From NCBI GenBank assembly GCA_008932965.1, contig WBXG01000011.1, forward strand, positions 3,877 through 35,876: a DNA stretch of 32,000 nt, read 5' to 3'. Under the pieces are notes generated by a model. The model worked only from the letters and a program-made list of their open reading frames with translations, ran no database searches and was not told where the DNA came from. This document shows, one piece after another, positions 3,035 through 32,000 of the stretch. Source of the stretch: Verrucomicrobiota bacterium. GTDB lineage: Bacteria > Verrucomicrobiota > Verrucomicrobiia > Chthoniobacterales > UBA6821. Within the stretch, counting starts at the first letter, position 1. Each line of letters starts with the position of its first letter. Position numbers and translations under genes: made by a program.

Positions 3035-3300
3035 TTAGACCAAATATTTCCTATCAATCACCTGCAGAAGCTAGGAAGCTAGGAAGCCAGGTCGATGCTG
3101 CATTAGACTCACATTGTGGCTTGAGCAGTATGTATGGCTACAGCCGTCTTCAAAATATGTGTCTGCGTTGACTCGCTCGCTCCCGCTCGTCTCGCCCTTT
3201 CAGGGCTGCCCCCTTAAAGCCAGGGCAGTCTCCACCGCGGTCTCCCGACCGCCGGTGGTTGCCCCATCAGTCTTGGCGGCCTCCTCTACCACGATCCATC
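3035..3300. repeat. MITE-like palindromic element, long variant with extra GC-rich modules (copy A)
   Basis: The left end TTAG-ACCAAATATTTCCTATCAATC resembles the family end TTAA-CCCGCATATTTCATACCGATC. The internal GGCTTGAGCAGTATGTATGGCTACAGCCGTC block is shared with other copies. 3167-3202 is identical to 31965-32000, and 3234-3256 is identical to 31610-31632. The right arm CCCCATCAGTCTTGGCGGCCTCCTC matches copies at 18198 and 13944. The right terminus is degenerate and overlaps the TPM gene 3' end. Confidence 0.5.
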
Positions 3301-4029
3301 AGCACCACCACCACCGCTCTCACCACCTCCCCCAGAAAAGCCGCCCCAATCATTACCACCACCAGTGCCTCCTCCAAGACCACCCCCTCCGATAAACCAG
3401 CCTCCACCGCCCCCATTTTTACCTCCAGAAGATCGCTTTTGAAAAAAAGAAATAATGATGATGAGTAAAAAAAACCCGATTGGAGAAAAGAGAAGCCTTT
3501 GCCAAGAAACGATTTGTTTCTTTTTTAAGGGGTTCTCGTTTTTATATTCCCCTGCTGTTGCTTTCATAATGGCATGGATGCCATCTAGGAGAGCTTGATT
3601 AGGGTTTCCTTGTTGAAAAAGAGGAGTCATTACCTCATCGATAATCTGCTTGCAAAGGGCATCTGGCAGTGCTCCTTCTAATCCATAACCAGTCTGAATA
3701 TGAATTTGATGCTCCTTCGCAAAGATGAGAAGTAAGACACCATTGCTATTTTTTTTCGTTCCCAAATGCCAGGTGCTATAAAGTTGTTGTGCATAATCAT
3801 CCAATGAAGTCCTGCTCGAAAATGTAGGTTCAATCACTACGACAATTTGATTCGAAGTCTGTTGATCAAAGCGTTCTAGTTGAGTATTGAGCTCCATAGC
3901 TACTTGAGGAGAGACCATACTGGCCTCATCATTAAAATAGTTTTTGGGTGATGGGGGTAATCCCTCTGCTCCTTGAAGAGGAATAAAACTCCATATTAGA
4001 AGAGCAAGAAAAAGGGTCAAGCGGGCCAT
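3286..4029 (-). CDS. TPM-domain (YgcG-like) membrane protein with a glycine-rich C-terminal tail
   Basis: Signal peptide MARLTLFLALLIWSFIPLQGA. A TPM-type core (YFNDEASMVSP...NQIVVVIEPT...GVLLLIFAKEHQIHIQTGYGLEGALPD). A TM helix (IGFFLLIIIISFF). A GGGGxxGGGG tail ending GSW. It lies next to a LemA gene, which is the classical pairing. Confidence 0.85.
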   Translation of the reverse strand: MARLTLFLALLIWSFIPLQGAEGLPPSPKNYFNDEASMVSPQVAMELNTQLERFDQQTSNQIVVVIEPTFSSRTSLDDYAQQLYSTWHLGTKKNSNGVLLLIFAKEHQIHIQTGYGLEGALPDALCKQIIDEVMTPLFQQGNPNQALLDGIHAIMKATAGEYKNENPLKKKQIVSWQRLLFSPIGFFLLIIIISFFQKRSSGGKNGGGGGWFIGGGGLGGGTGGGNDWGGFSGGGGESGGGGADGSW

Positions 4030-4100
4030 AGAGTTTTATATATATAGTCCAATTACTTAGAAATTACAGGCAGTTGACTTGATCTTCATAGAAAAAGGGA

Positions 4101-4202
4101 GCCTTCTCATTCCTTCATGATATCACAAGGTGCGTTGATTCTTTGGTCTCTTCGCAAGGGGTACGCATGGTGCTTCCATCGACAGTAGATAAATGTTTCT
4201 AG
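4101..4202. repeat. Degenerate, shortened MITE-like remnant between lemA and the TPM gene
   Basis: CTCATTCCTTCATGA resembles the left end. GCGTTGATTCTTTGGTCTCTTCGCAAGGGG resembles the internal block GCGTTGGTCTCGA..TGGGG of other copies. CGACAGTAGATAAATGTTT-CTAG resembles the right end CGATCAGTATGAAATATGCGGG-CTAG. Confidence 0.35.
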
Positions 4203-4253
4203 CAGGAGATGCCGGCTACCAATACCGGTGAGCATTCGCGTTGGAGAGTGATC

Positions 4254-4880
4254 TTATTTCTTATTGCTAAAATCAAACTTGACTGAAGGGGCTGTCTCTG
4301 AGGTTGGATTTGCAGTAAAATAAGGCTTTGGTCCATACCCCATGAATCCTGCAAGAAAGATTGCTGGAAAGGAACGTACTTTAATGTTGTAGACTTGAAC
4401 TGCGGTATTGAAACGCTCACGTTCTACAGAAATGCGATTTTCAGTTCCTTCAAGTTGTGCTTGGAGATCACGAAAATTCTGACTCGATTTAAGATCTGGA
4501 TAACGTTCACTAACAACTAAGAGGCGTGAGAGAGCCGTTCCAAGCTGTCCCTGTGCCTGTTGAAAAGCGGCAAGCTGGGCAGGGTCGGTCGGAGCTTGAT
4601 TGGTATTGAGCTGAGCACGTCCGACTGAAGCACGTGCCTCGGTTACCTCTACCATTGTAGATTGTTCAAACTGAGCGGCTCCTGCAACTGTCTGTACCAA
4701 GTTAGGGACTAAGTCAGCTCGGCGTTGATAGACATTTTGTACTTGTGCCCAGGCAGCATCTACCGATTGAGAAGCGCTCACAAGACCATTATAAATTCCT
4801 ACAACAAAGACGACGGAGGAAATGGCAAGGAATACTACAATAGCTGCGATAATAAGTAGGATACGAAACGAATTGTTCAT
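4254..4880 (-). CDS. lemA: LemA family protein
   Basis: N-terminal TM helix (ILLIIAAIVVFLAISSVVFVVG). It is followed by the LemA-type core (YNGLV...VDAAWAQVQNVYQRRADLVPNLV...ERYPDLKSSQNFRDLQAQLEGTENRI...R..FN..V..YN). I chose the internal ATG (MNNSFRI) at 4880. The ORF track extends it to 4931 with a non-ATG start. Confidence 0.85.
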   Translation of the reverse strand: MNNSFRILLIIAAIVVFLAISSVVFVVGIYNGLVSASQSVDAAWAQVQNVYQRRADLVPNLVQTVAGAAQFEQSTMVEVTEARASVGRAQLNTNQAPTDPAQLAAFQQAQGQLGTALSRLLVVSERYPDLKSSQNFRDLQAQLEGTENRISVERERFNTAVQVYNIKVRSFPAIFLAGFMGYGPKPYFTANPTSETAPSVKFDFSNKK

Positions 4881-5055
4881 AATAAAGAAGATCTCGGACA
4901 GGTTGTTCTTGGTAGTGTTAACAAGTGACACATGGTCGCCGTGAAATCAATATCCTTACTTGGTTCTGCTAGTGTGCACAATATTTTTATCTAAATCCTA
5001 GAATATCTATGAAATTGACATTCTAAGAATCAATCGAGTAGCTTAGAAAATTCTA

Positions 5056-5239
5056 TTAATCCAGAAACTTCATACTAATCGTAGCGAGAGGGCCGCGAAG
5101 CTAAGGTGGGCAAGGCGAGACCTGAATTCTGACGACAGCTGTGTAAGTATGCACTGCCCGAGGAAGGCTTCGAGATCAACGTAGTATCCAGTTGGCTTCC
5201 TACCTACCGTAAGTGATTGGCATGAAATATCCGGGTTAA
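5056..5239. repeat. MITE-like palindromic element, 184 bp (copy B, internal blocks inverted relative to copies H and L)
   Basis: TTAA-TCCAGAAACTTCATAC at the left end and CATGAAATATCCGGG-TTAA at the right. The reverse complement of the interior (CTGGATACTACGTTGATCTCGAAGCCTTCCTCGGGCAGTGCATAC) aligns with 31889-31935 of copy L. Confidence 0.7.
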
Positions 5240-5326
5240 AGCACAATGCTCGTTTTACGAACGTTCATGTAAAAATAGAAATGCTCCTTGGGCGCTTTTA
5301 ACTTTTCAAATTCCTCAATTTTTCAA

Positions 5327-6625
5327 ATGAAACTCTGTATTATTGGATCTGGCTATGTTGGTCTTGTGACGGGGGCGTGTTTTGCGGAGGTCGGCCACCA
5401 CGTTATGTGCGTCGATAATAACCCCAAAAAAATAGCGATGTTGTTGGCTGGCGAAATTCCTATTTATGAGCCAGGACTTGAAGAGCTCGTCACGCGTAAT
5501 GTGGCCTCAAAACGTTTGATGTTTACAAGTAGCATTCAAGAGGGAGTTGATCATGGAGAGGTTGTTTTTATTGCAGTTCCAACCCCACCTCAACCCGATG
5601 GCAGTGTCGATCTCTCCTATATTGAAGCGGTCGCCCGAGAAATTGCTGGTGTCCTCAAAGAATATCGAGTCATCGTTGACAAGAGCACGGTCCCTGTGAA
5701 AACCGGAGAGAAAGTTGCTGATACGATTCGACGTTACAACAAGACCGGTTCTCAATTTGATGTGGTGAGTAATCCTGAATTTCTTCGTGAGGGATGTGCT
5801 GTTGCTGATTTGATGAAACCAGATCGTATTGTCATCGGAAGCAACAATGACCGTGCCGTTGCGCTCATGAAAAAGATTTACGAACCTTTCATGTCTCCCA
5901 TTCTTGTCACCGACATTAATAGTGCAGAATTAATTAAACATGCAGCCAATTCATTTTTAGCGCTAAAAATTTCCTACATTAACGCTGTTGCAGCTATTTG
6001 TGAGGCTAGTGGAGCCGACGTGGAAAAAGTTGCCGATGGTATCGGCACGGATAAGCGTATTGGCCGTAACTTCCTCAATGCTGGTCTTGGCTATGGTGGC
6101 TCATGCTTTCCAAAAGATATCGCAGCCTTCATCTCCATTAGTCGTCAGCTAGGGGTTCCCTTCACCTTGTTAGAAGAAGTAGAGCGAATTAATACCTCTT
6201 CCTTAGAACGTTTTCTCACCAAGGTTCGTGAAGCCCTTTGGGTTTTACGCGATAAAAAAATTGCTGTTTGGGGATTAGCGTTCAAACCCGATACTGATGA
6301 TATTCGCTGCTCGGTCGCTATGGATCTTGTTGTTCAGCTACTCAAGGAGGGGGCACAGGTAACCGTCTATGATCCCAAAGGGATGGAAAAAGCTCAGGAG
6401 CTCGGAACTATTTCTAAGGCTATTTTTGCTACCTCTCCTCTAGAAGCCGCCAAAGATGCGGAAGCCCTCATCATTGCTACTGAATGGAGTGAATTTGCAA
6501 ATGTCGATTTTAGCTCTTTGAAAGAAAAAATGCATACCCCTTTGATTTTTGATGGTCGTAACCTACTCCATCCTGATGTGGTTCGAGAAGCTGGATTTAC
6601 CTATGTTAGCGTAGGAAGAGCATAA
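5327..6625 (+). CDS. ugd: UDP-glucose 6-dehydrogenase
   Basis: N-terminal Rossmann motif MKLCIIGSGYVGLVTGACFAEVGH. NPEFLREG. Catalytic-Cys block GLGYGGSCFPKD. C-terminal WGLAFKPDTDDIR. The ATG at 5327 is preferred over the upstream TTG at 5288. Confidence 0.9.
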   Translation: MKLCIIGSGYVGLVTGACFAEVGHHVMCVDNNPKKIAMLLAGEIPIYEPGLEELVTRNVASKRLMFTSSIQEGVDHGEVVFIAVPTPPQPDGSVDLSYIEAVAREIAGVLKEYRVIVDKSTVPVKTGEKVADTIRRYNKTGSQFDVVSNPEFLREGCAVADLMKPDRIVIGSNNDRAVALMKKIYEPFMSPILVTDINSAELIKHAANSFLALKISYINAVAAICEASGADVEKVADGIGTDKRIGRNFLNAGLGYGGSCFPKDIAAFISISRQLGVPFTLLEEVERINTSSLERFLTKVREALWVLRDKKIAVWGLAFKPDTDDIRCSVAMDLVVQLLKEGAQVTVYDPKGMEKAQELGTISKAIFATSPLEAAKDAEALIIATEWSEFANVDFSSLKEKMHTPLIFDGRNLLHPDVVREAGFTYVSVGRA

Positions 6626-6703
6626 ATCTCATCTCCCAAGGGATCATATGAAATCCCATGATCGATTCATGCAGCCAATGGTTCATTCATAAAACCCAAT
6701 CCT

Positions 6704-9436: not shown

Positions 9437-9468
9437 AAGGGTTCAGGTGCAACTTCTCATCTTGAGGG

Positions 9469-9681: not shown

Positions 9682-9688
9682 GAGGCCA

Positions 9689-10273: not shown

Positions 10274-10301
10274 TATAAAGGGAATAATTTTGAGAGTTCA
10301 C

Positions 10302-10483
10302 TTCGCTCGCCTATTTCATACTGATTCTGAAACACCTTGCTAGGGCCTGATGTATACTCTTTCTGGATCGAATGCTCCTCGAGCAGTTTGCCTCACACAG
10401 TGGTTGTCAGGCTTCATCGCTCGCTTTGTCCTATCAGCATTGGCCTTCTCATCGTCACAATCAGTGCGATATATCAGGGGATA
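10302..10483. repeat. MITE-like palindromic element, 182 bp, diverged (copy C)
   Basis: Left end CTCGCCTATTTCATACTGATTC. The internal CTCCTCGAGCAGT block matches CTCCTCGGGCAGT of copy L. The right arm is CCTATCAGCATTGGCCTTCTCATCGTCACAATCAGTGCGATATATCAGGG. It starts 28 bp upstream of the adk start codon. Confidence 0.65.
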
Positions 10484-10549
10484 GATCTTAGTCATAAATA
10501 GTCGTGAAGAACACCAAAAAATGTGGTTTTGAAATCGTTTTTTATTCTG

Positions 10550-10590
10550 AATTCGCCTATTTCATCCAACGAGCCGAAGCCTCTTGCATT
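10550..10590. repeat. Solo left-end fragment of the MITE-like element
   Basis: ATTCGCCTATTTCATCC...GAAGCCTCTTGC parallels CTCGCCTATTTCATAC...GAAACACCTTGC of copy C, about 250 bp upstream. Confidence 0.35.
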
Positions 10591-13415: not shown

Positions 13416-14639
13416 ATGGCTCAACGATCTCCCTCCTCTGTCCTGCTCATCAAGCTACGGCATCATGGAGATGTCCTTCTTGCTACACCGGTTGCCAGAG
13501 TGTTAAAGGCTCAGTTTCCCAATTGTCAGATCGATTTTCTCGTCTACGAAGGAACAGAGGCACTGCTAGAACACAATCCTGATCTACGTCAGGTTTGGAT
13601 CTGGCATCGAGCGGCCCGTGGGTGGAATCGTCTTAAAAAGATCCTTCATCTTTTTTTTCAACTACAGCACCAGCATTACGACTTGGTGATCCATCTTTCC
13701 GACCAGATGCAGGGGGCATTATTGGCAGCGCTTTTAAGGCCGCACCAATCTATTGGTATTGACTATCCCAAACGTCGTCATTTTTTTTGGAGCTCCTGCT
13801 TTACAACATTAGTTCCTCTGTTTCCAAGTAACACTCATCATACTGTAGAACAAAATCTAGCTACTCTAGCAGCAGTATTTCATGCTAGTCATGACACCAT
13901 AGGTGAGAGTACACACTCGTCAAGGAGGGCTTCGAGTTCAACACCCCATCAGCCTTCACAGCTTCCTCGTTACGATCAGTATGAATTATCCGGTCCAGAG
14001 ATAATTTTCAACAAGAGGTTCGTTCCCGAATCCCCCAATCACATGACGGATCCTATGTTGAGATGCCGATTGGTTATTAGCCAAGAAGACCGCTTATTTA
14101 TTCAAGAGCAGCTTCAAAAAACCTCATTTTCCACTCCCTATCTTCTCATTCATCCAACAGCACGCTGGTTTTTTAAGTGCTGGGAAGAGGAGTCCTTTGC
14201 AAAACTCATCGCCCATTTTGCCAATCAAGGCTGGTCTATTCTGTTAACCTCTGGCCCGGCCGTTGAAGAGCAAGCTATGGTTGCTACAATTTTAGAGAAA
14301 GTTCATTCCGACCGCATCTACTCACTTGCAGGTCAGTTAACATTAGGTCAGCTTGCAGCAGCAATTGAAGGAGCCACTCTTTTTATCGGTGTTGATTCTG
14401 TCCCAATGCATATGGCTGCAGCATTAGAGAAAGATGTCGTTGCTCTTTTTGGTCCAAGTAAAATCAATGAATGGCATCCTTGGATGACCCGCTATCACCT
14501 AGTGAAAGCCTCTGATTATGGTGATTTGATTGATCCAGATGATGTAAGAACAGAGACAGTAGTGCGCTATCTCTCTATGATTCCGGTGGAGGAAGTTATT
14601 TCAAAAGTTGAACAAATGTTACACCTTTCTTACTCGTAG
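13416..14639 (+). CDS. waaQ: GT9 LPS heptosyltransferase, heptosyltransferase III (WaaQ/RfaQ)-like, carrying an in-frame MITE-derived insertion
   Basis: VLLIKLRHHGDVLLATPVARVLKAQFPNCQIDFLVYEGTEALLEHNPDL is the KLRHHGD-type N-terminus of heptosyltransferase III. The C-terminal block is LFIGVDSVPMHMAAALEKDVVALFGPS. It is 407 aa, against 365 aa for the other GT9 in this window. The extra segment is encoded by 13866-13998. Confidence 0.85.
   Translation: MAQRSPSSVLLIKLRHHGDVLLATPVARVLKAQFPNCQIDFLVYEGTEALLEHNPDLRQVWIWHRAARGWNRLKKILHLFFQLQHQHYDLVIHLSDQMQGALLAALLRPHQSIGIDYPKRRHFFWSSCFTTLVPLFPSNTHHTVEQNLATLAAVFHASHDTIGESTHSSRRASSSTPHQPSQLPRYDQYELSGPEIIFNKRFVPESPNHMTDPMLRCRLVISQEDRLFIQEQLQKTSFSTPYLLIHPTARWFFKCWEEESFAKLIAHFANQGWSILLTSGPAVEEQAMVATILEKVHSDRIYSLAGQLTLGQLAAAIEGATLFIGVDSVPMHMAAALEKDVVALFGPSKINEWHPWMTRYHLVKASDYGDLIDPDDVRTETVVRYLSMIPVEEVISKVEQMLHLSYS
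13866..13998. repeat. MITE-like element copy inside the heptosyltransferase CDS (copy D), read through in frame
   Basis: CTAG-CAGCAGTATTTCATGC is the left end. GGGCTTCGAGTTCAAC is an internal block, as at 5166-5180. CCCCATCAGCCTTCACAGCTTCCTCGTTACGATCAGTATGAATTATCCGG matches the right arm of copy E (18198-18247) closely. Confidence 0.7.
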
Positions 14640-15773: not shown

Positions 15774-16198
15774 AAAAATGATTGACTAGCCTTTTTTCGT
15801 TTTAGCATCATAGAAAAGATGTACAAACCAAGTATCCAAGAACATTTATCGCTGATATCACTGTCACTACCTTTTACAGTTATATCTTGCATGGTACTGT
15901 TCTTCTTTCATCCCTGTAAATTAAGTCACGAGCGAATGTGATTGCGTTCGACGGAACGCCATTAAAAAGAGGGATTTTATCCATTACTGGCTTCGTATTT
16001 AAACGAATCTATTAATCCCTACCGTTCAAAATTCATCTGATTAAGTCAATCAATCGTGTTGATCGTTAGTGAAATACTAATTTTCTTCCTTTCCTTTCTC
16101 ACTTGTTAGCAACGGAATGCTTGCTACCACTGACCAGGAGTCATGGTGCATTTTCATATCACAAAAAAACAATACTAATCCCTTTCAATATTAACAAA

Positions 16199-18070
16199 AT
16201 GTCTGCTTTAACTCAAAATTCATCCCCTAAATTCAATCTCCAGGTAGAAAGAAAAAGGCCTGTATGCTCTTCATGGCTAGCGCACAGATCGCTTCTTTTC
16301 ATAGCATCCTTATGGAGTATAGGGAGCGCCTCTGCTATTTTTATGATACTATTTTCTCAATCTCTCCATGCGCAGGAAATAGATCCAAAAACCGATCCTA
16401 TTGACACTGAGCTTTCAGGGCCACTTGCCGTAATTCCAGAAATGATCTCTGTGGAAGATGCTGGAAATCTCGCTGATCCTATTACTGGATTGGGCGCGGT
16501 ACAAGAAGCATTCCACATCGGAAAATACCCTGTAACTAATTTACAATGGACAACTTTTCTCAATGCTGTGCACGTTGTTGAGCAAAATCCTGAAGATCCC
16601 CGCAATCTTTATCATGAGGAGATGTTTCAGAAAAATATTGGATCTGCTCCCTTATCTAAGTTAACCGATGTTATAAGAACCAGAATTGATGCAACCAATT
16701 TTCTAGGTCACAAGATCACGGTTTTTTTCCCAAAAGACTGGGGAACTCCCTTAGGACACTATTTTGGTTCGCTTCCTGTGACAGGAATAAGCCTAGATGA
16801 CTGTAAGCGCTATCTCAATTGGTTACATCATGGGGCTCCAGATTTTTTAACCTTATGTCGAAAAGACCCATCGTTAGATCCCTTTACTTTAAGTGAAAAG
16901 CTCTTAGCTATAACAGAAACTGGAGCCTATGATTTTACAAATGGCAAAAATGGAGAGCTTATGGAAGGAGCGCGCTATTTTCTCCCTAATTTAAATCAGT
17001 GGTACAAGGCTGCTTACCATTACGGTGGAACAACAGATGCTACCTACTGGTCTTATCCTACTCAAAGCAATAAATTACCAACTCAAAGCAATAAATTACC
17101 AACTCAAACAATCATCCTTGAACTCTTCAAAAATCCTTCTAGTGCTAAAACAGGAGCTAATTTTGCACAAGTTTTTTATAATTATAAACGATATTATATA
17201 GATGGATGTTATGACATGGAGCATTTATTTAGTGATGAAACCATGCCTTCAAAAGAAAATGAATATTATCTTGCAACACCTGTCGGTTTTTTCACAGATT
17301 CACCCAGCTCTTATGGAACCTATGATCAAGGAGGAAATGTAAGAGAATGGACGAGCGATTCTGTAATAACGTTGCAAGGAGAAGAAATGATTGCTCCAGG
17401 AGGATCATTTGAAGAGTCCAGTGATCAATTATTAAGCACTAATGCAAACAAAAAATCTTTTCCCCCGTCCTGTAGAATTAAAACTATCGGTTTAAGAGTA
17501 TGCTCATTAGCGACTGTTGGTAATCTTAACAAAGATCCAATTTTGTCAGATGCTGCCTCGAACTCCCTTAACAGTTCCTTAATTCTTCAGTCATTTACAA
17601 ATGTAGCCATTGCACAAACGACAGCTTATGGTCTTGAAGCTGCTTTAGCAGTTGGTATTAAATATGTTAATACGGGAAGGATAATGACTCTGAGTGAAAT
17701 AGTGCGCCCTTTTACCTATCAGCGAAATATTGTAAATGGTATCTTAAGTGTTGTTCTTGTCATGGGTGAAACAGGTCGAGCAACAGTGGCTCCAATAAAA
17801 AAAGAGGACTTATGGAATATAGGATTCGTTGTTGCCTCTACCATAGCTACGATGCTCCTGACTGAAGGTTCTGCTTTCTTTGTTGAAGCCGCCGTAGGAG
17901 AAGTGCTCAACCTGCTCAAAAACTCTAATTTGATCACAATGACAGTTCAAAATAGCGTTACTGAATTAGCATGGCCCAGATTGATTACCAACATGTGGTA
18001 CATTGGCCTGAATACTTATCTGACAACAAAATCAGATTTAAAATATTTTGAAGAACAACAACTCAATTAA
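16199..18070 (+). CDS. FGE-sulfatase/SUMF1-domain protein with an N-terminal TM anchor and a hydrophobic C-terminal region
   Basis: TM helix LLFIASLWSIGSASAIFMILF. FGE-domain blocks HIGKYPVTNLQWTTFLNAV, GISLDDCKRYLNWL, YGTYDQGGNVREWTSD and IGLRVC. The last 170 aa or so contain several hydrophobic stretches (ILSVVLVMG, IGFVVASTIATMLL). The ATG at 16199 is preferred over the TTG at 16103. Confidence 0.75.
   Translation: MSALTQNSSPKFNLQVERKRPVCSSWLAHRSLLFIASLWSIGSASAIFMILFSQSLHAQEIDPKTDPIDTELSGPLAVIPEMISVEDAGNLADPITGLGAVQEAFHIGKYPVTNLQWTTFLNAVHVVEQNPEDPRNLYHEEMFQKNIGSAPLSKLTDVIRTRIDATNFLGHKITVFFPKDWGTPLGHYFGSLPVTGISLDDCKRYLNWLHHGAPDFLTLCRKDPSLDPFTLSEKLLAITETGAYDFTNGKNGELMEGARYFLPNLNQWYKAAYHYGGTTDATYWSYPTQSNKLPTQSNKLPTQTIILELFKNPSSAKTGANFAQVFYNYKRYYIDGCYDMEHLFSDETMPSKENEYYLATPVGFFTDSPSSYGTYDQGGNVREWTSDSVITLQGEEMIAPGGSFEESSDQLLSTNANKKSFPPSCRIKTIGLRVCSLATVGNLNKDPILSDAASNSLNSSLILQSFTNVAIAQTTAYGLEAALAVGIKYVNTGRIMTLSEIVRPFTYQRNIVNGILSVVLVMGETGRATVAPIKKEDLWNIGFVVASTIATMLLTEGSAFFVEAAVGEVLNLLKNSNLITMTVQNSVTELAWPRLITNMWYIGLNTYLTTKSDLKYFEEQQLN
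17060..17108 (+). repeat. 21-bp in-frame tandem duplication (2.3 units) inside the FGE-domain CDS
   Basis: ACTCAAAGCAATAAATTACCA is repeated exactly twice and followed by ACTCAAA. It encodes PTQSNKL PTQSNKL PTQ. Confidence 0.9.
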
Positions 18071-18251
18071 CCCGTATGTTTCATCCCGATCTACTGCGTA
18101 GATCGGGAAGTCATATGGATGCTGCGTTAGACTTGCATTTTGATTTGGGCAGTATGTACAACATACAGCCCTGCATCAAAATGCTCGCCTGCCTTACCCC
18201 ATCAGCCTTCGAGGCCTCCTCGTTACGATCATTATGAAATATGCGAGCTAG
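18067..18251. repeat. MITE-like palindromic element, 185 bp (copy E)
   Basis: TTAA-CCCGTATGTTTCATCCCGATC at the left end and GATCATTATGAAATATGCGAG-CTAG at the right. The internal block is GCTGCGTTAGACTTG...GGGCAGTATGTACAACATACAGCC. The TTAA contains the stop codon of the plus-strand FGE-domain gene. The CTAG contains the stop codon of the minus-strand hexapeptide transferase gene. Confidence 0.85.
18084..18108. repeat. Perfect 10-bp inverted repeat (hairpin, 5-nt loop) inside copy E
   Basis: TCCCGATCTA-CTGCG-TAGATCGGGA lies 14 nt after the FGE-domain gene stop codon. No U-tract follows, so I am not calling it a canonical intrinsic terminator. Confidence 0.6.
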
Positions 18252-18919
18252 CGTGCAAGAATCTGGTACTCCTCTTGCTTTTTTACAATGCTTTTTTCAG
18301 GTAGGATCCCATGCCATGAGACCATAGGATAGATTAAGCTCTCCCTTCCAATAATTGATCCTGGGCTCAATACAGCATTGCATCCAATTTCAACATAATC
18401 ACCAAGAATAGCACCAAATTTTTTGAGGCCAGTGGAAATTTTGAGGTTCTCTATTTTGATGATAATTTCCTGCCGATCTAATCGGACATTAGAAAGAATA
18501 ACACCTGCCCCAAGATGAGCACGGTAGCCTAAAATAGAATCGCCAACATAGTTAAAATGGGGGACCTGGACTTCATCAAAGAGGAGTGAATTTTTTAATT
18601 CACACGAGTTTCCAATAACCGAATTATTTCCAACAATAACATTTTCTCGAATATAACACCCTTTACGCAACTGACATCCTTCCCCAATCCAGGCAGGACC
18701 TAGAATTACAGCCCCCTCCTCAATAATGGTATTTTTCCCAATAAAGACATTTTTTCCAATATAAGAATTTCCATTCTTAATTCCATAATTTGCTGGAGTG
18801 AGGTAATCAGCAAGATAAGAAGAAATATTGGAAAGAATCTCCCAGACTCGCGAATTTCTGTTGATCAAAATCTGATGATCTGTATGGCGAAGATCAAGGT
18901 AAGCATTAGGATGAAACAT
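18248..18919 (-). CDS. Left-handed beta-helix (hexapeptide-repeat) transferase, sugar nucleotidyl/acyl-transferase-like
   Basis: Long run of hexapeptide repeats (IGKNVFIGKNTIIEEGAVILGPAWIGEGCQLRKGCYIRENVIVGNNSVIGNSCELKNSLL...VGDSILGYRAHLGAGVILSN). The ATG at 18919 (MFHPNAY) is preferred because the 19024 start would overlap the upstream GT9 gene by 50 bp. Confidence 0.65.
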   Translation of the reverse strand: MFHPNAYLDLRHTDHQILINRNSRVWEILSNISSYLADYLTPANYGIKNGNSYIGKNVFIGKNTIIEEGAVILGPAWIGEGCQLRKGCYIRENVIVGNNSVIGNSCELKNSLLFDEVQVPHFNYVGDSILGYRAHLGAGVILSNVRLDRQEIIIKIENLKISTGLKKFGAILGDYVEIGCNAVLSPGSIIGRESLIYPMVSWHGILPEKSIVKKQEEYQILAR

Positions 18920-18974
18920 AGAATTTAAAGGTACTGTATGAGGGCTGTTTGTTAGGAAAATAAACGAGATTATT

Positions 18975-20072
18975 TTATTTTTTAAAATGAAGTATCCGCT
19001 CCATTGCATCAAAAACTTTTTCAAAAGATATCTGACTCATCTCACTAAGCTGAGGATCTTTTTGTTTAAGTAGAAGTTCTTTTTCAGGCTTGGCAAGTTC
19101 GATGATTTCATGGCCCGGGGTATTGTCTAGTGGACCATACATACTAGTGGGGCTGCGGTAGTGGAGTAGCGCAAGAGTGGGGCAACCCACTGCAAAACCA
19201 AGATGCATCACGCCAGTATCTGTGCTCACAAGCATGGAAGCCTCCTTGAGGAGTGCGGCTGTCTCCTCTAAGGTTGTTTTTTGAACAAGATTGATGACCC
19301 AAGGAGTTGCTTTTTCAATAGCTATTCCTACCTCGTAATTGTCATGCCCCCCCGTTAAAATGATCTGATGAGGATATCTCTCCTTAAACCATCTGATGGC
19401 GTGAATATAAGATTCTACGGGCCAGTTTCGCCAGGAGAGTGTTTTACCTCCTCCTGTTTGAAAAATAATAAAAGGTTGTTTTAAAGCAGGGTGGTGTTGG
19501 TAGAGAAGTTTTACCTCCTCCTCCCTTACCTGATAAACCATACCTCGATCGACCTTTGCCCCACCGGCGGCAGTAGCTACTTTCAAGATTTCTTTCACAA
19601 TATGGGGTTCATCTTTCGTAACCACTGGATGTGAGAGAAGGAAGGAAAAACGTTGACAGCGCTCCACAGCGCCGAAAAAAGCATGTCGATTCAAAAGGTA
19701 TCCTAGTGGAACCGCCTCTTCATTGACATGCAGGGCAACAACTAGATCTGGTTTACTATTTCGAAAGTGCTGTAAAAGCTTGAATTGAGAAAGAGGCGAT
19801 TTACTCAGTGGAAGGACTTCATCTACGAATGGATGGTGACGTGCTACTGACCCACGTCGATGGTGTGCTGCGACAATGAGTTTGGACTGAGGATACCCCT
19901 TTTTTAAACTTTTTATTGCTGCTGAATCAAAAAGACTATCTCCAATTCCAGTTGTGCTAAAAACTAAAATGAGTTTAGGGTTCTTTGGGAGGGGCCATGG
20001 AACTGGTGGGAAGACCAATGCAAGAAGACGAAAAAAATGCTCATTAAAAAATCGAGTAATCTTGTTCCACAT
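18975..20072 (-). CDS. GT9 glycosyltransferase (ADP-heptose:LPS heptosyltransferase family)
   Basis: KLILVFSTTGIGDSLFDSAAIKSLKKGYP N-terminal block. C-terminal LVSTDTGVMHLGFAVGCPTLALL block typical of GT9. Confidence 0.85.
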   Translation of the reverse strand: MWNKITRFFNEHFFRLLALVFPPVPWPLPKNPKLILVFSTTGIGDSLFDSAAIKSLKKGYPQSKLIVAAHHRRGSVARHHPFVDEVLPLSKSPLSQFKLLQHFRNSKPDLVVALHVNEEAVPLGYLLNRHAFFGAVERCQRFSFLLSHPVVTKDEPHIVKEILKVATAAGGAKVDRGMVYQVREEEVKLLYQHHPALKQPFIIFQTGGGKTLSWRNWPVESYIHAIRWFKERYPHQIILTGGHDNYEVGIAIEKATPWVINLVQKTTLEETAALLKEASMLVSTDTGVMHLGFAVGCPTLALLHYRSPTSMYGPLDNTPGHEIIELAKPEKELLLKQKDPQLSEMSQISFEKVFDAMERILHFKK

Positions 20073-21821: not shown

Positions 21822-21887
21822 TTAACCCGCATATTTCATACTCATCACGGCCTCCTCGTCACGATCAGTATGAAATATCTGGGCTAG
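21822..21887. repeat. Mini (66-bp) derivative of the MITE-like element (copy F)
   Basis: TTAA-CCCGCATATTTCATACTCATCACGGCCTCCTCGTCACGATCAGTATGAAATATCTGGG-CTAG. Both termini are near consensus and almost all interior sequence is missing. Confidence 0.85.
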
Positions 21888-22033: not shown

Positions 22034-22217
22034 TTAACTCGAATATTTCATACTCAATCCTTGCGGCTTGGGGAAAGCTCATTGTCACTGTGCTGGTCTC
22101 GATTGCGAGTGGGGAAGTAGGGCTCCTGCAGCCCCGCATCACAATCTTTCTCCCTCCTTGTACTAATAAGCTTTGCACGGCGCCTCATGACGCTTCAGTA
22201 TGAAATGCTCGGATTAA
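22034..22217. repeat. MITE-like palindromic element, 184 bp (copy G)
   Basis: TTAA-CTCGAATATTTCATAC at the left end and CAGTATGAAATGCTCGGA-TTAA at the right. The internal block is GCGGCTTGGGGAAAGCTCATTGTCACTGTGCTGGTCTCGATTGCGAGTGGGG, shared with copy H. It ends 60 bp before the mreB start. Confidence 0.85.
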
Positions 22218-24868: not shown

Positions 24869-24874
24869 TCAAGA

Positions 24875-27076: not shown

Positions 27077-27080
27077 AGCG

Positions 27081-27264
27081 TTAACCCGCATATTTCATAC
27101 CGATCTATTACGGCTTGTGGAAAGCTCATGATTACTGCGTTGGTCTCGAATTGTGATTTGGGCGGTATGTACTCATACAGCGGTCGTCGCAATCCATCAC
27201 CTTCCATGTCATCATCAGAATTCGCTGCGCTTCGTGACGAACCAGTATGAAATAGGCAGGCTAA
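27081..27264. repeat. MITE-like palindromic element, 184 bp, near-consensus ends (copy H)
   Basis: TTAA-CCCGCATATTTCATACCGATC at the left end and ACCAGTATGAAATAGGCAGG-CTAA at the right. It starts 4 nt after the mrdA stop codon. Internal blocks CTGCGTTGGTCTCGAATTG and GGCGGTATGTACTCATACAGCGGTCGTCGCAATCCATCACCTTC are shared with copy L. Confidence 0.9.
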
Positions 27265-27414
27265 AAGATTCATTTCCGCTTTTTCTCAAAAACAGTTCAC
27301 TTTAAAAGAAACTCAAGTTACCATAAAGAACTCGTTTGGAAAGAGCTCACCGGAAGATGTACAGCATTCCAAATTTTAAGAATCTCAAAATTTTTCACTT
27401 TTAACCGCTGTCTG

Positions 27415-29013
27415 ATGACAGCCCCTACTACTTTGAATATTATCGATACTGTAAAACGTTTTTTAGGCGTTAAGAAAAATGGGCCCAGAGTTAAACTCAT
27501 TATTAGTTCTGAAAAGCTCGAGACAAGGGTCGCACTCATGGAAGATGGTCTGCTTGAAGAGTACTCGATAGAACGTGATAGCGACCGAAATATCGTAGCC
27601 GGTATTTTTAAAGGAAAAGTTCGCAATATTGAGCATGGATTGAAAGCCATGTTTGTGGATATTGGTTTTGAAAAAAATGCCTTCTTGCATTTTTGGGATG
27701 CTGTGCCGGCAGCCCTTGACAGTGGTATTGAAGCTGTCCATCGCGGTAAAAACCAACAGGCTAAGAAAAAAATTACAGCTAAAGATATTCCATCCATTTA
27801 TCCAATTGGATCAGAGGTGATGGTTCAGGTGACAAAAGGCCCTATTGGAACCAAAGGACCACGTGTCACCACCAATATCAGTCTTGCTGGGCGCTACATG
27901 GTGCTTATGCCATTTAATGATCAATGTGGTATTTCACGCAAAATTGAAGACCCTAAAGAGCGCTTACGCCTTCGTGATATTCTCACCAACTTAGAATTAC
28001 CAGAGGGTATGGGGATTATTATTAGAACAGCGGGAGAGGGACAGCGGGCACGTTTCTTTGTACGTGATCTCCATTTTTTACTCGATCAATGGGGTTGTGT
28101 GGAGGAGGGGATGAAAACAAAACCAGCTGCAAGTACGTTGATGCTGGAGCCAGATTTGATTGCCCGTACAGTACGTGATTTTCTTACAGATACCGTTGAT
28201 GAGGTTAATATTGATGACCTTGGTGAGGCAGAGAGGATGCAATCACTTGTGGCACCTATTTCAAAACGTGCTCGCAAGCTAATTCATTATTATAGCGGGG
28301 CAAAACCAATTTTTGATCATTTTGGAGTTCAAGAGCAGATTGATAAAGCCTTTCTGCGCCAGGTTTGGCTTCCCTGCGGAGGATACCTTGTCATTGATGA
28401 AACTGAAGCGATGATCACCGTCGATGTCAATACCGGTCGTAACAAAGGAAGCAAAGATATGGAAAAAACGTTGCTTCAAACAAATCTTGAAGCCGTTGAT
28501 GAAATTGCTCGTCAACTTCGACTCCGAAATATTGGAGGGCTTATTGTCTGTGATTTTATCGATATGAAAAGCCGGAAAGATCAGCAGGCGGTCTATCAAC
28601 GTATGAAGGAACGACTCAGGCGTGATAAGGCTCGCACCCATGTCTTGCCGATCTCTGCATTGGGGCTGATGGAAATGACCCGCCAGCGTGCTCAGGAGAG
28701 TATTTCAAGCACCCGCTACACCCATTGTCCTTATTGTGGAGGCAAAGGTATTATTAAAAGTATGATGACCATGAGTGTAGAATTACAACGTGCCCTTCAC
28801 ACCTTAATGAAGCGTCATCAAGATGATATTCATGAATTTAAAGTTACTGTTCATCCTGAGTTGCTCCATCGTTTGCGTCATGAAGATGATGAGCTCCTAG
28901 CCGATATACAACGTCGTTATGCCGCTTGCTTAACATTCCGTGCCGATCCTGCTATTCATCTAGAGAAATTTGTCATAACGAACGCTGTTACGAGCGAAGA
29001 ACTAACAGTGTAA
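27415..29013 (+). CDS. rng: Ribonuclease G/E family endoribonuclease
   Basis: S1 domain (IVAGIFKGKVRNIEHGLKAMFVDIGFEKNAFLH). Catalytic blocks (LVIDETEAMITVDVNTG, GGLIVCDFIDM). Zn-link CPYCGGKG. It lies downstream of the mre genes, as in enterobacterial mreBCD-...-rng. Confidence 0.9.
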   Translation: MTAPTTLNIIDTVKRFLGVKKNGPRVKLIISSEKLETRVALMEDGLLEEYSIERDSDRNIVAGIFKGKVRNIEHGLKAMFVDIGFEKNAFLHFWDAVPAALDSGIEAVHRGKNQQAKKKITAKDIPSIYPIGSEVMVQVTKGPIGTKGPRVTTNISLAGRYMVLMPFNDQCGISRKIEDPKERLRLRDILTNLELPEGMGIIIRTAGEGQRARFFVRDLHFLLDQWGCVEEGMKTKPAASTLMLEPDLIARTVRDFLTDTVDEVNIDDLGEAERMQSLVAPISKRARKLIHYYSGAKPIFDHFGVQEQIDKAFLRQVWLPCGGYLVIDETEAMITVDVNTGRNKGSKDMEKTLLQTNLEAVDEIARQLRLRNIGGLIVCDFIDMKSRKDQQAVYQRMKERLRRDKARTHVLPISALGLMEMTRQRAQESISSTRYTHCPYCGGKGIIKSMMTMSVELQRALHTLMKRHQDDIHEFKVTVHPELLHRLRHEDDELLADIQRRYAACLTFRADPAIHLEKFVITNAVTSEELTV

Positions 29014-29039
29014 CGATCATGATGAAATATTCGGGTTAT
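29011..29039. repeat. 29-bp right-end stub of the MITE-like element
   Basis: TAA-CGATCATGATGAAATATTCGGG-TTAT matches the family right end (ACGATCAGTATGAAATATGCGGG-TTAA). It begins with the rng stop codon. Confidence 0.5.
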
Positions 29040-29067
29040 AATAGTCTCCCTTATTATTAGTGATACG

Positions 29068-29937
29068 ATGAAATTCTCACTAGCATCTAATCTGATCCTC
29101 TCTTCCTCAGAGTGGCAAATGATCATTTGTATGGGTGCAAGTCTCTGGCTTCTTTTTGAAGTATGGAGAGGATGGCAGCTCGGTTTTTTTCGAGGATTAT
29201 TAAAATTTCTGGCACTTATTGTAGCTTGGTTTGCAGGTTCAACAATAGTTGCAACACTGAGCACGCTATTTATTTTTTTATTTCACACTTCATCCTCACT
29301 GATTTCCTCAGTGGTTGGAGTTTCGGTAGGAATCATTATTTATTTCATTGTAAATTTCTTATCGGCGCTCCTTTTCAAAAAAACAAATCATTACCGAGGC
29401 TTTCTTCGAGGCCTCTTTGGAATTGGTGGAGCTTGTTGGGGGTTGTTGTTTGGTCTCTTTTTTATTTGGGGAACTATTTCTCTCATACGCAGCTTAGGTC
29501 TTGTTGGGGAGATGCGACTTTTGAAAGCGGAGCAACAAGGGCTTCCAGCGGTGAGTGACCCATTAGCCTGCAACCTCGTACGTATTAAAAAATCAATAGA
29601 GCTTGGCCCGCTCGGAGTCTGGTTTGTTCAAGTAGATCCGCTGACCTCTGCATTCTATGCAAACACAAAAAAAAGCATGATTCTACTTCAGGATCATGAT
29701 GCCTTTATTCGTTTTATGAATGCTCCAAACACACAGGAGCTTTTAGCTCAACCTCTCATGAAAAAAATGATCAATGATCCTCAGGTTCAACAAGCTATTT
29801 CTTCGGGAAATCTTTTTCAACTTGTCAAAAATAAAAATGTACAGCAAGCCTTGAGTGATCCAACCCTGTGGAAGCAATTAAAATCCTTTGATCTCTCTAC
29901 CGTCCTGAATCAGGCCTGTAAACAAGGTGAAGAGTAA
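29068..29937 (+). CDS. cvpA: CvpA-family membrane protein with an extended soluble C-terminal region
   Basis: N-terminal pattern LWLLFEVWRGWQLGFFRGLLKFLALIVAWFAG, followed by three or four further TM helices, is CvpA-like. The C-terminal 140 aa or so are hydrophilic. Confidence 0.6.
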   Translation: MKFSLASNLILSSSEWQMIICMGASLWLLFEVWRGWQLGFFRGLLKFLALIVAWFAGSTIVATLSTLFIFLFHTSSSLISSVVGVSVGIIIYFIVNFLSALLFKKTNHYRGFLRGLFGIGGACWGLLFGLFFIWGTISLIRSLGLVGEMRLLKAEQQGLPAVSDPLACNLVRIKKSIELGPLGVWFVQVDPLTSAFYANTKKSMILLQDHDAFIRFMNAPNTQELLAQPLMKKMINDPQVQQAISSGNLFQLVKNKNVQQALSDPTLWKQLKSFDLSTVLNQACKQGEE

Positions 29938-29980
29938 TGGGTAATGGGTAATGGGTAATGGGTAATGGGTAATGGGTAAT
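29935..29980. repeat. Heptanucleotide microsatellite (TAATGGG) x 6 plus a partial unit
   Basis: Perfect tandem TAATGGG units at 29935-29976 followed by TAAT. The first unit contains the cvpA stop codon. The array ends 95 bp upstream of the gatB start. Confidence 0.9.
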
Positions 29981-29991
29981 ATTCGGGCTAG
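29978..29991. repeat. Possible MITE right-end fragment abutting the heptamer array
   Basis: AATATTCGGG-CTAG is the same as the last 10 nt plus flank of the family right end (compare AATATTCGGG-TTA at 29026-29038). It is a short match, so support is weak. Confidence 0.3.
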
Positions 29992-30074
29992 ACTCAAAGA
30001 CGATTGCTAATTACCGTGATGCTTCCTAAATTTGTTGTGCTTATTACAGAAAAGAAAATATTTTTTCAAAATCC

Positions 30075-31568
30075 GTGCATCTAGAAAAAACCCCTCCATA
30101 CCTTGTCACTATTGGGCTTGAAGTGCACGCTCAGCTCAAAACCAAAACAAAAATGTTTTGCTCCTGCCCCGTGGAATATGGAGCTGAGCCCAATACTCAT
30201 CTCTGTCCCGTCTGTTTAGGACATCCAGGGGCTCTTCCTGTTATTAACAATGAGGCGCTTTGCTTGACAACATTAGCTGGCCTGATGCTTTCATGCGACA
30301 TTCCACCTGTCTGTAAGTTTGACCGCAAAAATTATTTTTACCCTGACATGCCCAAAAATTATCAGATTTCACAGTTTGATAAACCGTTGTGTCTCGGTGG
30401 TGCTGTTCCCCTGCATGAGCGGGCTTATCCTAAAGAAATTCAGAAAACCCCATTGGCTGAAGAAAAACAGATTCGTCTTACTCGGATCCATCTTGAAGAA
30501 GATGTTGCTAAAAGTTTTCATTTCGAGTCAACCAGCGGTATTGATTTTAATCGTGCTGGAACTCCCCTTATTGAAATCGTCTCTGAACCCGATATCACTT
30601 CACCAGAAGAAGCTTTTGCTTACCTAACGGCCCTCCGCCAAATTTTAATTTATGGTAATATCAGTGATGCTGATATGGAAAAAGGGCAGATGCGTTGTGA
30701 TGTGAATGTCTCCATACGCCCTCTGGATCAAAAAGAATTTGGGACAAAAATCGAATTAAAGAATCTGAATAGTATTAGTGGTGTCCGTCGTGCTTTAACC
30801 TATGAGATTGAGCGTCAGAGAGGCCTTCTTTCACAGGGAGAAAAGCTCTCTCAAGAAACACGCCGTTGGGACGATGATCGTGGTGAAACAACATTGATGC
30901 GTATGAAAGAATCAGCACATGACTACCGCTATTTTCCAGATCCTGACTTACTTCCTATTCATACCGAAGAGCTAGTTAGCATAGCAAAAAAAAGAATGCC
31001 TGAGTTGCCACAAGTAAAGTGTGCGCGCCTGATCAATGAGTGCGAATTAAGTCCCTATGATGCCGCAGTTCTTACCGAGGATCATGCTCTTGTAAACTAC
31101 TTTGAAGAAGCCATGCGTCTCTCCTCTCAAAAAGTCCGTCCTAAGATTCTTGCAAATTGGATTATCAATGATCTTTTGAGTGCTTTAGGGACGGCCTCCC
31201 TAAGTGTTAAGGAATCACCCATTACTCCGGAAGCCCTTGTGGAGTTGACTTCGTTGATTGAGCAAGGAGCTATTAGCGGGCGTCAAGGAAAAGAGGTTTT
31301 TGCAGAAATGATGAGCAGTCAAAAAAGCCCATCCTCGATCGTTGAGGAAAAAGGTTTACAACAAGTCAGTGATAGTGGTGCTATTGAAGGCTTCTGCGAC
31401 AGCGTTATTGAAGCAAATCCATCAGTGGTCGCAGATTTCAAAGCAGGTAAGGAGGCAGCCTTGAATTTTCTCAAAGGACAGGTCATGAAACTTTCTAAAG
31501 GCAAAGCAAATCCTGCGCTTGCTGGAGAAATCTTGTTAACCCGGATATTGCATACTGATGGTGATTAG
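30075..31568 (+). CDS. gatB: Aspartyl/glutamyl-tRNA(Asn/Gln) amidotransferase subunit B
   Basis: GTG start. IGLEVHAQLKTKTKMFCSC, CPVCLGHPGALPV, NYFYPDMPKNYQISQ, RIHLEEDVAKS, RCDVNVS, DYRYFPDPDL, and the C-terminal GatB/YqeY domain (FLKGQVMKLSKGKANP). Confidence 0.95.
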   Translation: MHLEKTPPYLVTIGLEVHAQLKTKTKMFCSCPVEYGAEPNTHLCPVCLGHPGALPVINNEALCLTTLAGLMLSCDIPPVCKFDRKNYFYPDMPKNYQISQFDKPLCLGGAVPLHERAYPKEIQKTPLAEEKQIRLTRIHLEEDVAKSFHFESTSGIDFNRAGTPLIEIVSEPDITSPEEAFAYLTALRQILIYGNISDADMEKGQMRCDVNVSIRPLDQKEFGTKIELKNLNSISGVRRALTYEIERQRGLLSQGEKLSQETRRWDDDRGETTLMRMKESAHDYRYFPDPDLLPIHTEELVSIAKKRMPELPQVKCARLINECELSPYDAAVLTEDHALVNYFEEAMRLSSQKVRPKILANWIINDLLSALGTASLSVKESPITPEALVELTSLIEQGAISGRQGKEVFAEMMSSQKSPSSIVEEKGLQQVSDSGAIEGFCDSVIEANPSVVADFKAGKEAALNFLKGQVMKLSKGKANPALAGEILLTRILHTDGD

Positions 31569-31692
31569 AAAGCCAAGAAAGTTGATGGGGTACCACCGGC
31601 AGTCCGAAGACCGCGGTCTCCCGACCGCCGGTAGTGTATGCATCAGGATTCGCTGCGCCTCACAACGAATCAGTATGAAATATGCGGGCTAG
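31536..31692. repeat. MITE-like palindromic element, 157-bp variant with a GC-rich module (copy K)
   Basis: TTAA-CCCGGATATTGCATACTGAT at the left end and GAATCAGTATGAAATATGCGGG-CTAG at the right. The interior contains ACCGCGGTCTCCCGACCGCCGGT, identical to 3234-3256. The left 33 bp form the last codons and stop codon of gatB. Confidence 0.85.
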
Positions 31693-31828
31693 CTTGAATC
31701 GTTTCCTGAAAAAGAGCATTCGATTTTATTTTGCAGTAAGAGGAAAATTTTCTCATTCCCAAAAAAAGAGCCACACTCAGAATCAGAACTGTAAAAAAAA
31801 CGATCAATAGGGAGTTGATTTTCTTCAT
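31670..31828 (-). CDS. Hypothetical 52-aa membrane peptide (weak call)
   Basis: My own translation gives ATG at 31828 and MKKINSLLIVFFTVLILSVALFLGMRKFSSYCKIKSNALFQETIQASPHISY, with the stop inside the right end of copy K. There is one clear hydrophobic helix but no obvious Shine-Dalgarno sequence. It is below the ORF-track size cutoff. Confidence 0.25.
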   Translation of the reverse strand: MKKINSLLIVFFTVLILSVALFLGMRKFSSYCKIKSNALFQETIQASPHISY

Positions 31829-31840
31829 GATTGTTGGAGG

Positions 31841-32000
31841 CTAGCCCGCATATTTCATACCGATTCTGCTGCGGCTTGCGAACACCTGATGGATACTGCG
31901 TCAGTCTCGAATTGCTCCTCGGGCAGTATGAAACATACAGCCGTCGTCGCAATCCATCACCTTCGTTGACTCGCTCGCTCCCGCTCGTCTCGCCCTTTCA
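31841..32000. repeat. MITE-like palindromic element, long variant, truncated by the window edge (copy L)
   Basis: CTAG-CCCGCATATTTCATACCGATTC at the left end. The interior parallels copy H (GCGGCTTGCGAA..., GTCTCGAATTG, GGCAGTATGAAACATACAGCCGTCGTCGCAATCCATCACCTTC). It then continues with the 36-mer GTTGACTCGCTCGCTCCCGCTCGTCTCGCCCTTTCA, also found at 3167-3202. Confidence 0.85.

Follow-up and report, generated by a model that had tools for sequence, protein, structure and literature searches.

A repeat family among housekeeping genes

The window, by which we mean the whole stretch of 32,000 nucleotides analysed here, comes from a metagenome-type assembly of a freshwater, Chthoniobacterales-like Verrucomicrobiota genome. 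Its GC content is 38-47% and it is filled by housekeeping genes, including mreB, the PBP2 gene, an RNase E/G-family gene, gatB, fmt, adk and glycosyltransferase genes for the lipopolysaccharide core; no tRNA was found in it, and the whole window gave no Rfam match at the gathering score. Scattered among these genes are copies of a short palindromic repeat, and it is this repeat that concerns us. We consider it very probable that the copies are a family of non-autonomous DNA transposons, or MITEs (miniature inverted-repeat transposable elements), most likely moved in trans by an IS1380-family DDE transposase encoded elsewhere.

The first-pass annotation of this DNA had proposed a MITE-like family on the basis of 14 intervals with shared termini and internal blocks, and the sharing is real: CCCGCATATTTCATAC, the terminus of 16 nt, is matched 14 times in the window with no more than 3 mismatches, whereas 100 dinucleotide shuffles gave 0.20 matches on average, a 70-fold excess, and an unbiased repeat search independently recovered the same termini and internal blocks. 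The list itself stood in part. With nhmmer profiles built from 45 aligned copies of a 176-bp class and 17 copies of a 257-bp class, and with the window searched at maximum sensitivity, we found 10 solid copies (E 2e-9 to 6e-51) and one marginal fragment (29010-29038, E 0.03); the intervals 4101-4202, 10550-10590 and 29978-29991 gave no nhmmer match at E<=10 and drop out. The remaining element sequence amounts to approximately 1.7 kb, or 5.3% of the window, at a density of about one copy per 3 kb.

A metagenome-type assembly is a setting in which repeats can be mis-assembled, and an origin of the copies in assembly artefacts or local duplications was therefore weighed. This explanation is effectively refuted and we give it next to no credence: each copy has unique flanks, every copy is in place in eight independent assemblies that are 98.8-99.5% identical to the window, and the family is dispersed over many contigs and genomes, with more than 100 copies on about 48 contigs of two other metagenome-assembled genomes (MAGs), referred to below as the Kiruna and Tobar MAGs.

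The five full copies of 182-185 bp that had been claimed were recovered, these lengths including the flanks. Full copies of the 176-bp class lie at 5057..5239 (minus strand, E 2e-36, TTAA/TTAA flanks), between divergent LemA-family and UDP-glucose dehydrogenase genes; at 18067..18251 (plus strand, nhmmer 18067-18250, E 3e-43, TTAA/CTAG flanks); at 22034..22217 (plus strand, E 1e-36, TTAA/TTAA flanks), upstream of mreB; and at 27081..27264 (plus strand, E 6e-51, flanked by TTAA and CTAA), with the PBP2 gene on one side and the RNase E/G-family gene on the other. A full-length, degenerate copy of the same class at 10303..10480 (plus strand, E 9e-31) has as its neighbours adk, on the minus strand, and a plus-strand rhomboid-family gene, and the same adk/rhomboid intergenic region of the Kiruna MAG holds a 293-bp copy (L026:2290-2582).

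The 257-bp class is represented twice. The copy at 3036..3285 (plus strand, E 1e-42) has a degenerate left terminal inverted repeat (TIR), which reads TTAG followed by ACCAAATATTTCC, and lacks the right one; it is 79% identical to L050 over 246 nt. The copy at 31841..32000 (plus strand, nhmmer 31842-32000, E 9e-45) is cut by the window edge. It is complete at L108:3294-3557, on a 5.3-kb metagenome contig that overlaps the last 3.5 kb of the window and carries an identical 289-aa protein, and there it is a 257-bp-class copy that measures 264 bp including its CTAG/CTAG flanks; it is 97.5% identical to L093 of the Kiruna MAG. Leftward, no extension of the window genome was on record when an 809-aa protein served as query.

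Shorter forms make up the rest. A 125-bp copy with CTAG/CCAG flanks lies at 13866..13998 (no strand assigned; nhmmer 13903-13993, E 2e-9 and 1.5e-8), and a 58-bp mini copy with TTAA/CTAG flanks at 21822..21887 (an inverted repeat, no strand assigned; nhmmer 21822-21886, E 3e-8) consists of two TIRs and about 25 nt. A 149-bp variant with TTAA/CTAG flanks at 31536..31692 (plus strand, nhmmer 31536-31691, E 5e-21) keeps part of a GC-rich module described below. The marginal fragment at 29010..29038 (plus strand) is probably a solo right end, reading ACGATCATGATGAAATATTCGGG plus TTAT and matching the TIR with 3 mismatches.

Two observations concern the gaps next to these copies. At 29934-29980 a perfect heptamer array (GTAATGG, 6.7 units) runs from the stop codon of the open reading frame (ORF) 29068..29937 directly into TATTCGGGCTAG, which resembles the last 10 nt of the right TIR plus a CTAG flank; the array may represent a microsatellite that now stands in place of the greater part of a copy. 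On the minus strand, a 47-codon ORF at 31693-31840, predicted to encode a small hydrophobic peptide (MKKINSLLIVFFTVLILSVALFLG...), occupies the gap between two copies, and its stop lies in the CTAG flank of copy 31536-31692.

Termini, target duplication and folding

Terminal inverted repeats had been described for the family and are indeed present, conserved over 16-20 bp, with the consensus CCCG[C/G]ATATTTCA[T/C]AC. In an alignment of 45 copies the 16-nt core of the TIR is nearly invariant, and the same holds for the central hairpin, GGCAGTATG..CATACAGCC, and for some short blocks; among the arms there are several subfamilies and mosaics. Over the window and 93 related loci, the distance from TIR to TIR peaks sharply at 176 bp (54 pairs at 170-179 bp), with a second class at 250-299 bp and a few mini copies of 58-130 bp, so that copies range from 58 to 299 bp in length; none has coding capacity. 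In the 257-bp class, the 176-bp backbone is joined by a GC-rich hairpin module of 83 bp, seen in the window at 3168-3259 and from 31966 on, and also at L093:5488-5571. One hairpin of this module, CCACCGCGGTC-TCCC-GACCGCCGGTGG, is conserved; a second stem, GGGCTGCC..GGCAGTC, encloses a loop of variable length, between 4 and about 40 nt. The module has no Rfam match. That it might be an independent nested element was rejected for our sample, in which every instance lies within a copy, at a distance of 53 nt from one of the TIRs, and none stands alone.

The sequences flanking the TIRs were examined in 96 copies from the window and related loci. The flanking tetranucleotides are of the form YTAR in approximately 90% on both sides, the left flank being TTAA in 37 of the 96 copies, CTAG in 23, CTAA in 14 and TTAG in 8. 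Left and right tetranucleotides are the same in 57 copies, as compared with a mean of 23.9 and a maximum of 38 when the pairing was permuted 10,000 times. The two outer positions of the flanks are concordant as direct repeats in 62/78 and 67/79 cases (79-85%); read as complementary TIR positions, they agree in 54/79 and 47/79, and a 2-bp TA model would give 59-68%. Because the outer positions behave as direct repeats and not as TIR partners, these data indicate that the target duplication is 4 bp at YTAR. A 2-bp TA duplication of the IS630 type was rejected on this concordance. Every YTAR contains TAA or TAG, a point to which we return in connection with gene ends. The collection also amounts to over 100 naturally occurring insertion sites of the presumed IS1380-family transposase, and these show a clear preference for YTAR.

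Some copies lie side by side. Head-to-tail dimers that share one YTAR, and solo TIRs beside full copies, were seen at L011:159-524, L050:6496-6867 and L026:2582-2604; because of this arrangement we suggest that the duplicated flank of one copy was itself reused as a target.

Each copy had also been described as a long imperfect palindrome, and this was confirmed by folding: the mean RNA minimum free energy is -70 kcal/mol against -45 kcal/mol for shuffles (mean z -6.2), and 82% of the base pairs are symmetric about the element centre. In a chimera folding test, native pairs of left and right arms were approximately 6 kcal/mol more stable than chimeras between subfamilies; a matrix of arm identities discriminates weakly (0.64 self, 0.60 between subfamilies, 0.57 shuffled).

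These properties bring up a different explanation, in which the copies are a family of structured RNA or DNA hairpins selected by the host as transcript stabilisers, terminators or regulatory sites, the transposon-like ends being secondary. The quality of the folds, the extra stability of native arm pairs and the near-invariance of the central hairpin all speak for it, as does the fact that some copies are 94-97% identical across genomes whose genes are 70-75% identical. On the other hand, the RNAalifold consensus of the 45 copies is weak (-13 kcal/mol), comprising mostly the TIR stem and central hairpin with little covariation, and an Rfam search at E<=10 with one copy returned only chance-level matches (five related loci gave one tRNA and otherwise nothing). 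Copies are found in either orientation and whatever the gene context, even within a coding sequence, and between strains that are 99.3% identical the density of substitutions is 0.56% inside elements and 0.57% outside. Furthermore, the target duplications and the partner insertion sequences described below account directly for the ends. We therefore regard host selection as an improbable origin of the family; as MITEs, the copies might still affect the transcripts that contain them by way of their hairpins.

Partner elements of the IS1380 family

The absence of a transposase from the window, which had been stated earlier, was upheld by tblastn with an IS1380-family transposase, which found nothing there. 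A search for insertion sequence (IS) elements with matching inverted repeats, as the earlier reading had proposed, did succeed in other genomes; the IS1380-family elements that it found lie neither in the window nor in the sampled portions of the closest MAGs. Four loci (L059, L039, L094 and L095) contain elements of approximately 2.0 kb with the TIRs of the window family, YTAR flanks and an ORF of 478-484 aa. The product of this ORF matches the NCBIfam model transpos_IS1380 (NF033539) with 346 and 323 bits (cut-off 180) and Pfam DDE_Tnp_1_4 (PF13701) with 438 bits (2e-131). The L059 element has CTAA/CTAA flanks, and two more full IS copies, fetched via homologous proteins, have TTAG/TTAG and CTAA/CTAG flanks.

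Relatives of this transposase abound in metagenomes, where no fewer than 8000 proteins match at E<=1e-50. Most of them lie on contigs of about 2 kb, which is to be expected because repeats break assemblies. In a metagenome scan, 45 of 80 loci encoding such relatives had paired TIRs of the type CCCG[C/G]ATATTTCA[T/C]A, 1.7-2.3 kb apart and flanked by YTAR. Altogether, the 15-16-nt termini of the family bound IS1380-family transposase genes at about 49 independent loci, and more distant transposases (47-55% identity) have related CCCGCATTTCTCAC termini. Two deletion derivatives, of 459 bp (L010) and 554 bp (L081), still hold fragments of the transposase gene.

Based on these findings, our working model is that an IS1380-family transposase would recognise the 16-20-bp TIRs of the MITEs, would insert the element at YTAR (TTAA, CTAG, CTAA or TTAG) and would thereby duplicate the 4-bp target. 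Mobilisation in trans in this manner is inferred from the shared termini and flanks, and the MITEs may be active at present. The interpretation of the copies as MITEs is supported by the combination of features that we found: (i) a length below 600 bp without coding capacity; (ii) conserved TIRs; (iii) a target duplication; (iv) dispersed copies and (v) an autonomous element with matching termini.

Another IS family that targets YTAR or TA could in principle do the same, the candidates being the IS5 group and IS630/Tc1-mariner. For IS5 the classical pattern is YTAR duplicated over 4 bp, and for IS630 it is CTAG with a duplication of TA; the nearly invariant TA core of our flanks, and the 40% of flank pairs that differ at the outer positions, would suit such an element. 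We consider this very unlikely, given the many loci at which the family termini enclose an IS1380-family transposase gene and the 79-85% concordance of the outer flank positions as direct repeats. In addition, no transposase of the IS5 or IS630 type was found between the termini in those TIR-bounded intervals above 400 bp that were inspected, in a search that was not exhaustive.

The IS1380 family, as described by ISfinder, comprises elements of approximately 1.5-2 kb with short TIRs and a duplication of 4-5 bp. The partner elements fit this description in their match to the curated model, in TIRs of 15-16 nt that start with CC, in the 4-bp duplication and in their length of 1.7-2.3 kb. A described member, IS1247, has 16/13-bp inverted repeats and a 5-bp direct repeat (PMC3281130). 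The window copies differ from IS1380 elements in that they encode nothing, and the partner clade may stand apart by its strict YTAR target, its CCCG...CGGG ends and a 71-aa ORF. This ORF is conserved in the full IS and divergent from the transposase gene (L094:1257-1472 and L095:1257-1472, both minus strand; L059 at about 3744-3950). Its product has a sub-threshold match of the MazE/AbrB type (E 0.008, 16.5 bits, cut-off 24.7) and may be a DNA-binding accessory or regulatory protein.

One further element with the family termini deserves mention. At L006:5827-6921, an element of 1087 bp has CTAG/CTAG flanks and extended inverted repeats of about 70 bp, and it carries a 192-aa gene with a flavin-reductase domain in place of a transposase gene; it is therefore a passenger-carrying derivative.

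The ends of the family also recall the eukaryotic transposon piggyBac, whose signature is a duplicated TTAA target and ends of the form 5'-CCC...GGG-3'. The window family ends in CCCG...CGGG and TTAA is its commonest flank (37/96); the difference is that its target is the degenerate YTAR and that of piggyBac a fixed TTAA. Moreover, piggyBac transposases have been described as distant relatives of prokaryotic IS1380 (PMC10140906, PMC10813416). Searches with our IS1380-family transposase did not reveal this relationship: only PF13701 and PF01609 were matched in Pfam at E<=10, with no piggyBac domain (DDE_Tnp_1_7) among the matches, phmmer and profile searches against the PDB gave no match, and the AlphaFold model was poor (pLDDT 56), which made a Foldseek comparison with piggyBac uninformative.

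The tentative idea that transposition of the IS1380 clade and its MITEs follows a cut-and-paste pathway like that of piggyBac, with the excised element taking its 4-nt flanks along and these annealing to another YTAR, seems to us doubtful, if worth stating. Under such a pathway, donor and target flanks might differ at the two outer positions and leave non-identical but valid YTARs, an outcome that is possible because the target is degenerate, unlike the fixed TTAA of piggyBac. Both flanks are valid YTARs and differ in at least 18 of the 96 copies (approximately 19%). Three well-preserved copies in the window (18067-18251, 21822-21887 and 31536-31692) carry TTAA as their left and CTAG as their right flank, a pair that requires two transitions with the TA core intact. 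If the pathway were real, such flanks would record in nature a step of the mechanism that piggyBac does not reveal, and the TTAA / CCC...GGG signature would be tied to prokaryotic relatives. The link of IS1380-type elements to the piggyBac signature is of interest in that piggyBac is a genome-engineering tool.

There is precedent for bacterial MITEs that depend on an IS, namely MITEPye1 with IS1182 in Paracoccus yeei (PMC11578231) and the MaeMITEs of Microcystis (PMC2779907). Like these, the window family is short and non-coding, has IS-matching TIRs and target duplications, is mostly intergenic and forms long stem-loops; unlike them, it has an IS1380-family partner, a density of about one copy per 3 kb and a host in the Verrucomicrobiota. 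In open-access full text we came across neither a described IS1380-type MITE nor a description of MITEs from Verrucomicrobiota, which does not by itself prove novelty.

The first-pass annotation had compared the density of the family with that of Correia elements and RPEs. The likeness holds for density and for effects on genes, and it does not extend to membership of either family. Correia elements have 26-bp TIRs of unrelated sequence and a TA duplication and are restricted to Neisseria. The window family resembles them in being dense and palindromic, in its putative co-transcription with neighbouring genes, in having size variants that arose by internal deletion and in the lack of a transposase nearby; it differs in its 4-bp YTAR duplication, its Verrucomicrobiota host and its identifiable partner IS family. 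RPEs are sequence families specific to Rickettsia, and the likeness to them lies in one copy that is read in frame in an otherwise conserved heptosyltransferase III, to which it adds 43 residues; here, 1 of about 11 copies in the window lies in a coding sequence. REP and BIME sequences are palindromes of 20-40 bp with a GTAG/CGTC head, no target duplication and a RAYT transposase of the Y1 type. They are distinct from the window family, whose units are 176-257 bp with TIRs and a target duplication, and no Y1 transposase was found between those termini that were inspected.

Distribution, mobility and effects on genes

In 185,579 species genomes, one per species, an exact scan for YTAR plus the TIR found more than 93 stretches, and among the matches listed most are in MAGs assigned to Verrucomicrobiota, Chthoniobacterales or 'Spartobacteria', with a few in Phycisphaerae/Planctomycetota. 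By nhmmer the Kiruna MAG yields 54 copies over 175 kb and the Tobar MAG another 54 over 133 kb, which makes 108 copies over 308 kb; both MAGs have 43% GC and share the same subfamilies. The family makes up approximately 5-9% of the sampled sequence in the three genomes studied, which are of the freshwater, Chthoniobacterales-like kind, the densities for the Kiruna and Tobar MAGs being upper estimates since their chunks were chosen for containing a TIR. By contrast, no copy is present in 13 kb of either L104 or L105, two syntenic relatives with 42-43% GC, and 124 kb of the AS27 MAG (57% GC) yielded only 25 TIR-like sites and, by nhmmer, no MITE of the 176- or 257-bp class. Our results thus support an IS1380-type MITE family with a 4-bp YTAR duplication that has expanded in one low-GC Chthoniobacterales-like lineage, an undescribed example of an ordinary kind of element that is unusually dense.

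At the DNA level, the genes of the window share 70-75% identity with syntenic Kiruna contigs, and one stretch of 510 bp is 92% identical between the window and the Tobar MAG. Some copies, however, are 94-97.5% identical between the window and the Kiruna MAG. Because this far exceeds the identity of the genes, it suggests recent horizontal spread between lineages or, alternatively, mis-binning of contigs.

Several observations weigh against mobilisation of the MITEs by an IS1380-family transposase, or at least against a simple version of it. First, the flanks are non-identical in 39 of the 96 copies, and these discordant flanks are not concentrated in decayed copies: left and right flanks are identical in 23 of 41 copies with at most one TIR mismatch and in 31 of 49 with 2-3. 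Second, no transposase was found in the window or in the approximately 308 kb of the two MITE-rich MAGs, the partner being known from other, mostly high-GC, genomes. Third, what the 176- and 257-bp MITEs have in common with the sampled IS elements is confined to the terminal 16-20 bp, and the interiors of the two are unrelated; derivation of the MITE by deletion from the sampled IS was rejected, the match being limited to the TIRs. Fourth, the eight assemblies close to the window show no presence/absence polymorphism, which leaves recent mobility in the window lineage unproven. Finally, no clean empty site was found at the nucleotide level. The L043 site orthologous to copy 3036-3285 was rejected as such a site: a 30-nt string there resembles fused TIRs, and the site may hold a tiny remnant and not be empty. 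The evidence from orthologous presence and absence is accordingly mixed, in that an insert is missing from homologous heptosyltransferases and copies are missing from L104 and L105, yet there is neither a clean empty site nor a strain polymorphism.

One copy lies within a coding sequence. In the heptosyltransferase III gene at 13416..14639, the 125-bp copy and its 4-bp duplication form an in-frame insertion of 129 nt, or 43 codons. When 19 homologues are aligned, the 43 extra residues are seen to follow a conserved EQNLATL; P0002, which is 73% identical, and most of the others lack them. Homologous DNA reads ACT CTT GC at the insertion point, one synonymous change away from a CTAG target. More generally, the length added is a multiple of 3 nt (180) for 31 of the 45 full copies; this and the open-frame signals are suggestive and, given the relatedness of the copies, not significant.

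Other homologues of this heptosyltransferase (L105:6720-6854; proteins P0008 and P0037) have a different insert of about 50 residues at a second site. The insert of L105 is bounded by an 18-nt inverted repeat unrelated to the window family, and the second-site inserts of P0008 and P0022 were rejected as family members, having no nhmmer match. It seems that the heptosyltransferase III gene took up in-frame palindromic insertions more than once.

At gene ends, copy 18067-18251 lies exactly between convergent genes: its left TTAA holds the TAA stop of 16103..18070 and its right CTAG the stop of 18248..19024 (minus strand). For the RNase E/G-family gene, the stop codon is the TAA with which the solo end at 29010 begins, and the stop (3286-3288) of the TPM-domain gene at 3286..4029 (minus strand) abuts copy 3036-3285. 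In gatB (30075..31568), the last 10 or so codons and the stop are inside copy 31536-31692, about 30 nt in. Stop codons would be harmless landing sites because YTAR contains a stop triplet and the duplication regenerates YTAR. An insertion at a stop codon would thus leave the gene intact, and this could explain why many copies lie exactly at gene ends.

For annotation, the abundance of the family means that it will break assemblies and confuse gene calls. In the window, copies create the C-terminus of GatB, supply or occupy several stop codons and lengthen a heptosyltransferase by 43 residues.

A repeat of another kind is present in the FGE-sulfatase-like gene at 16103..18070, where a 21-bp tandem repeat (2.6 copies) occupies 17060-17112. 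The 99.3%-identical contig L096 lacks one 21-bp unit, and this repeat is therefore polymorphic in length within the population.

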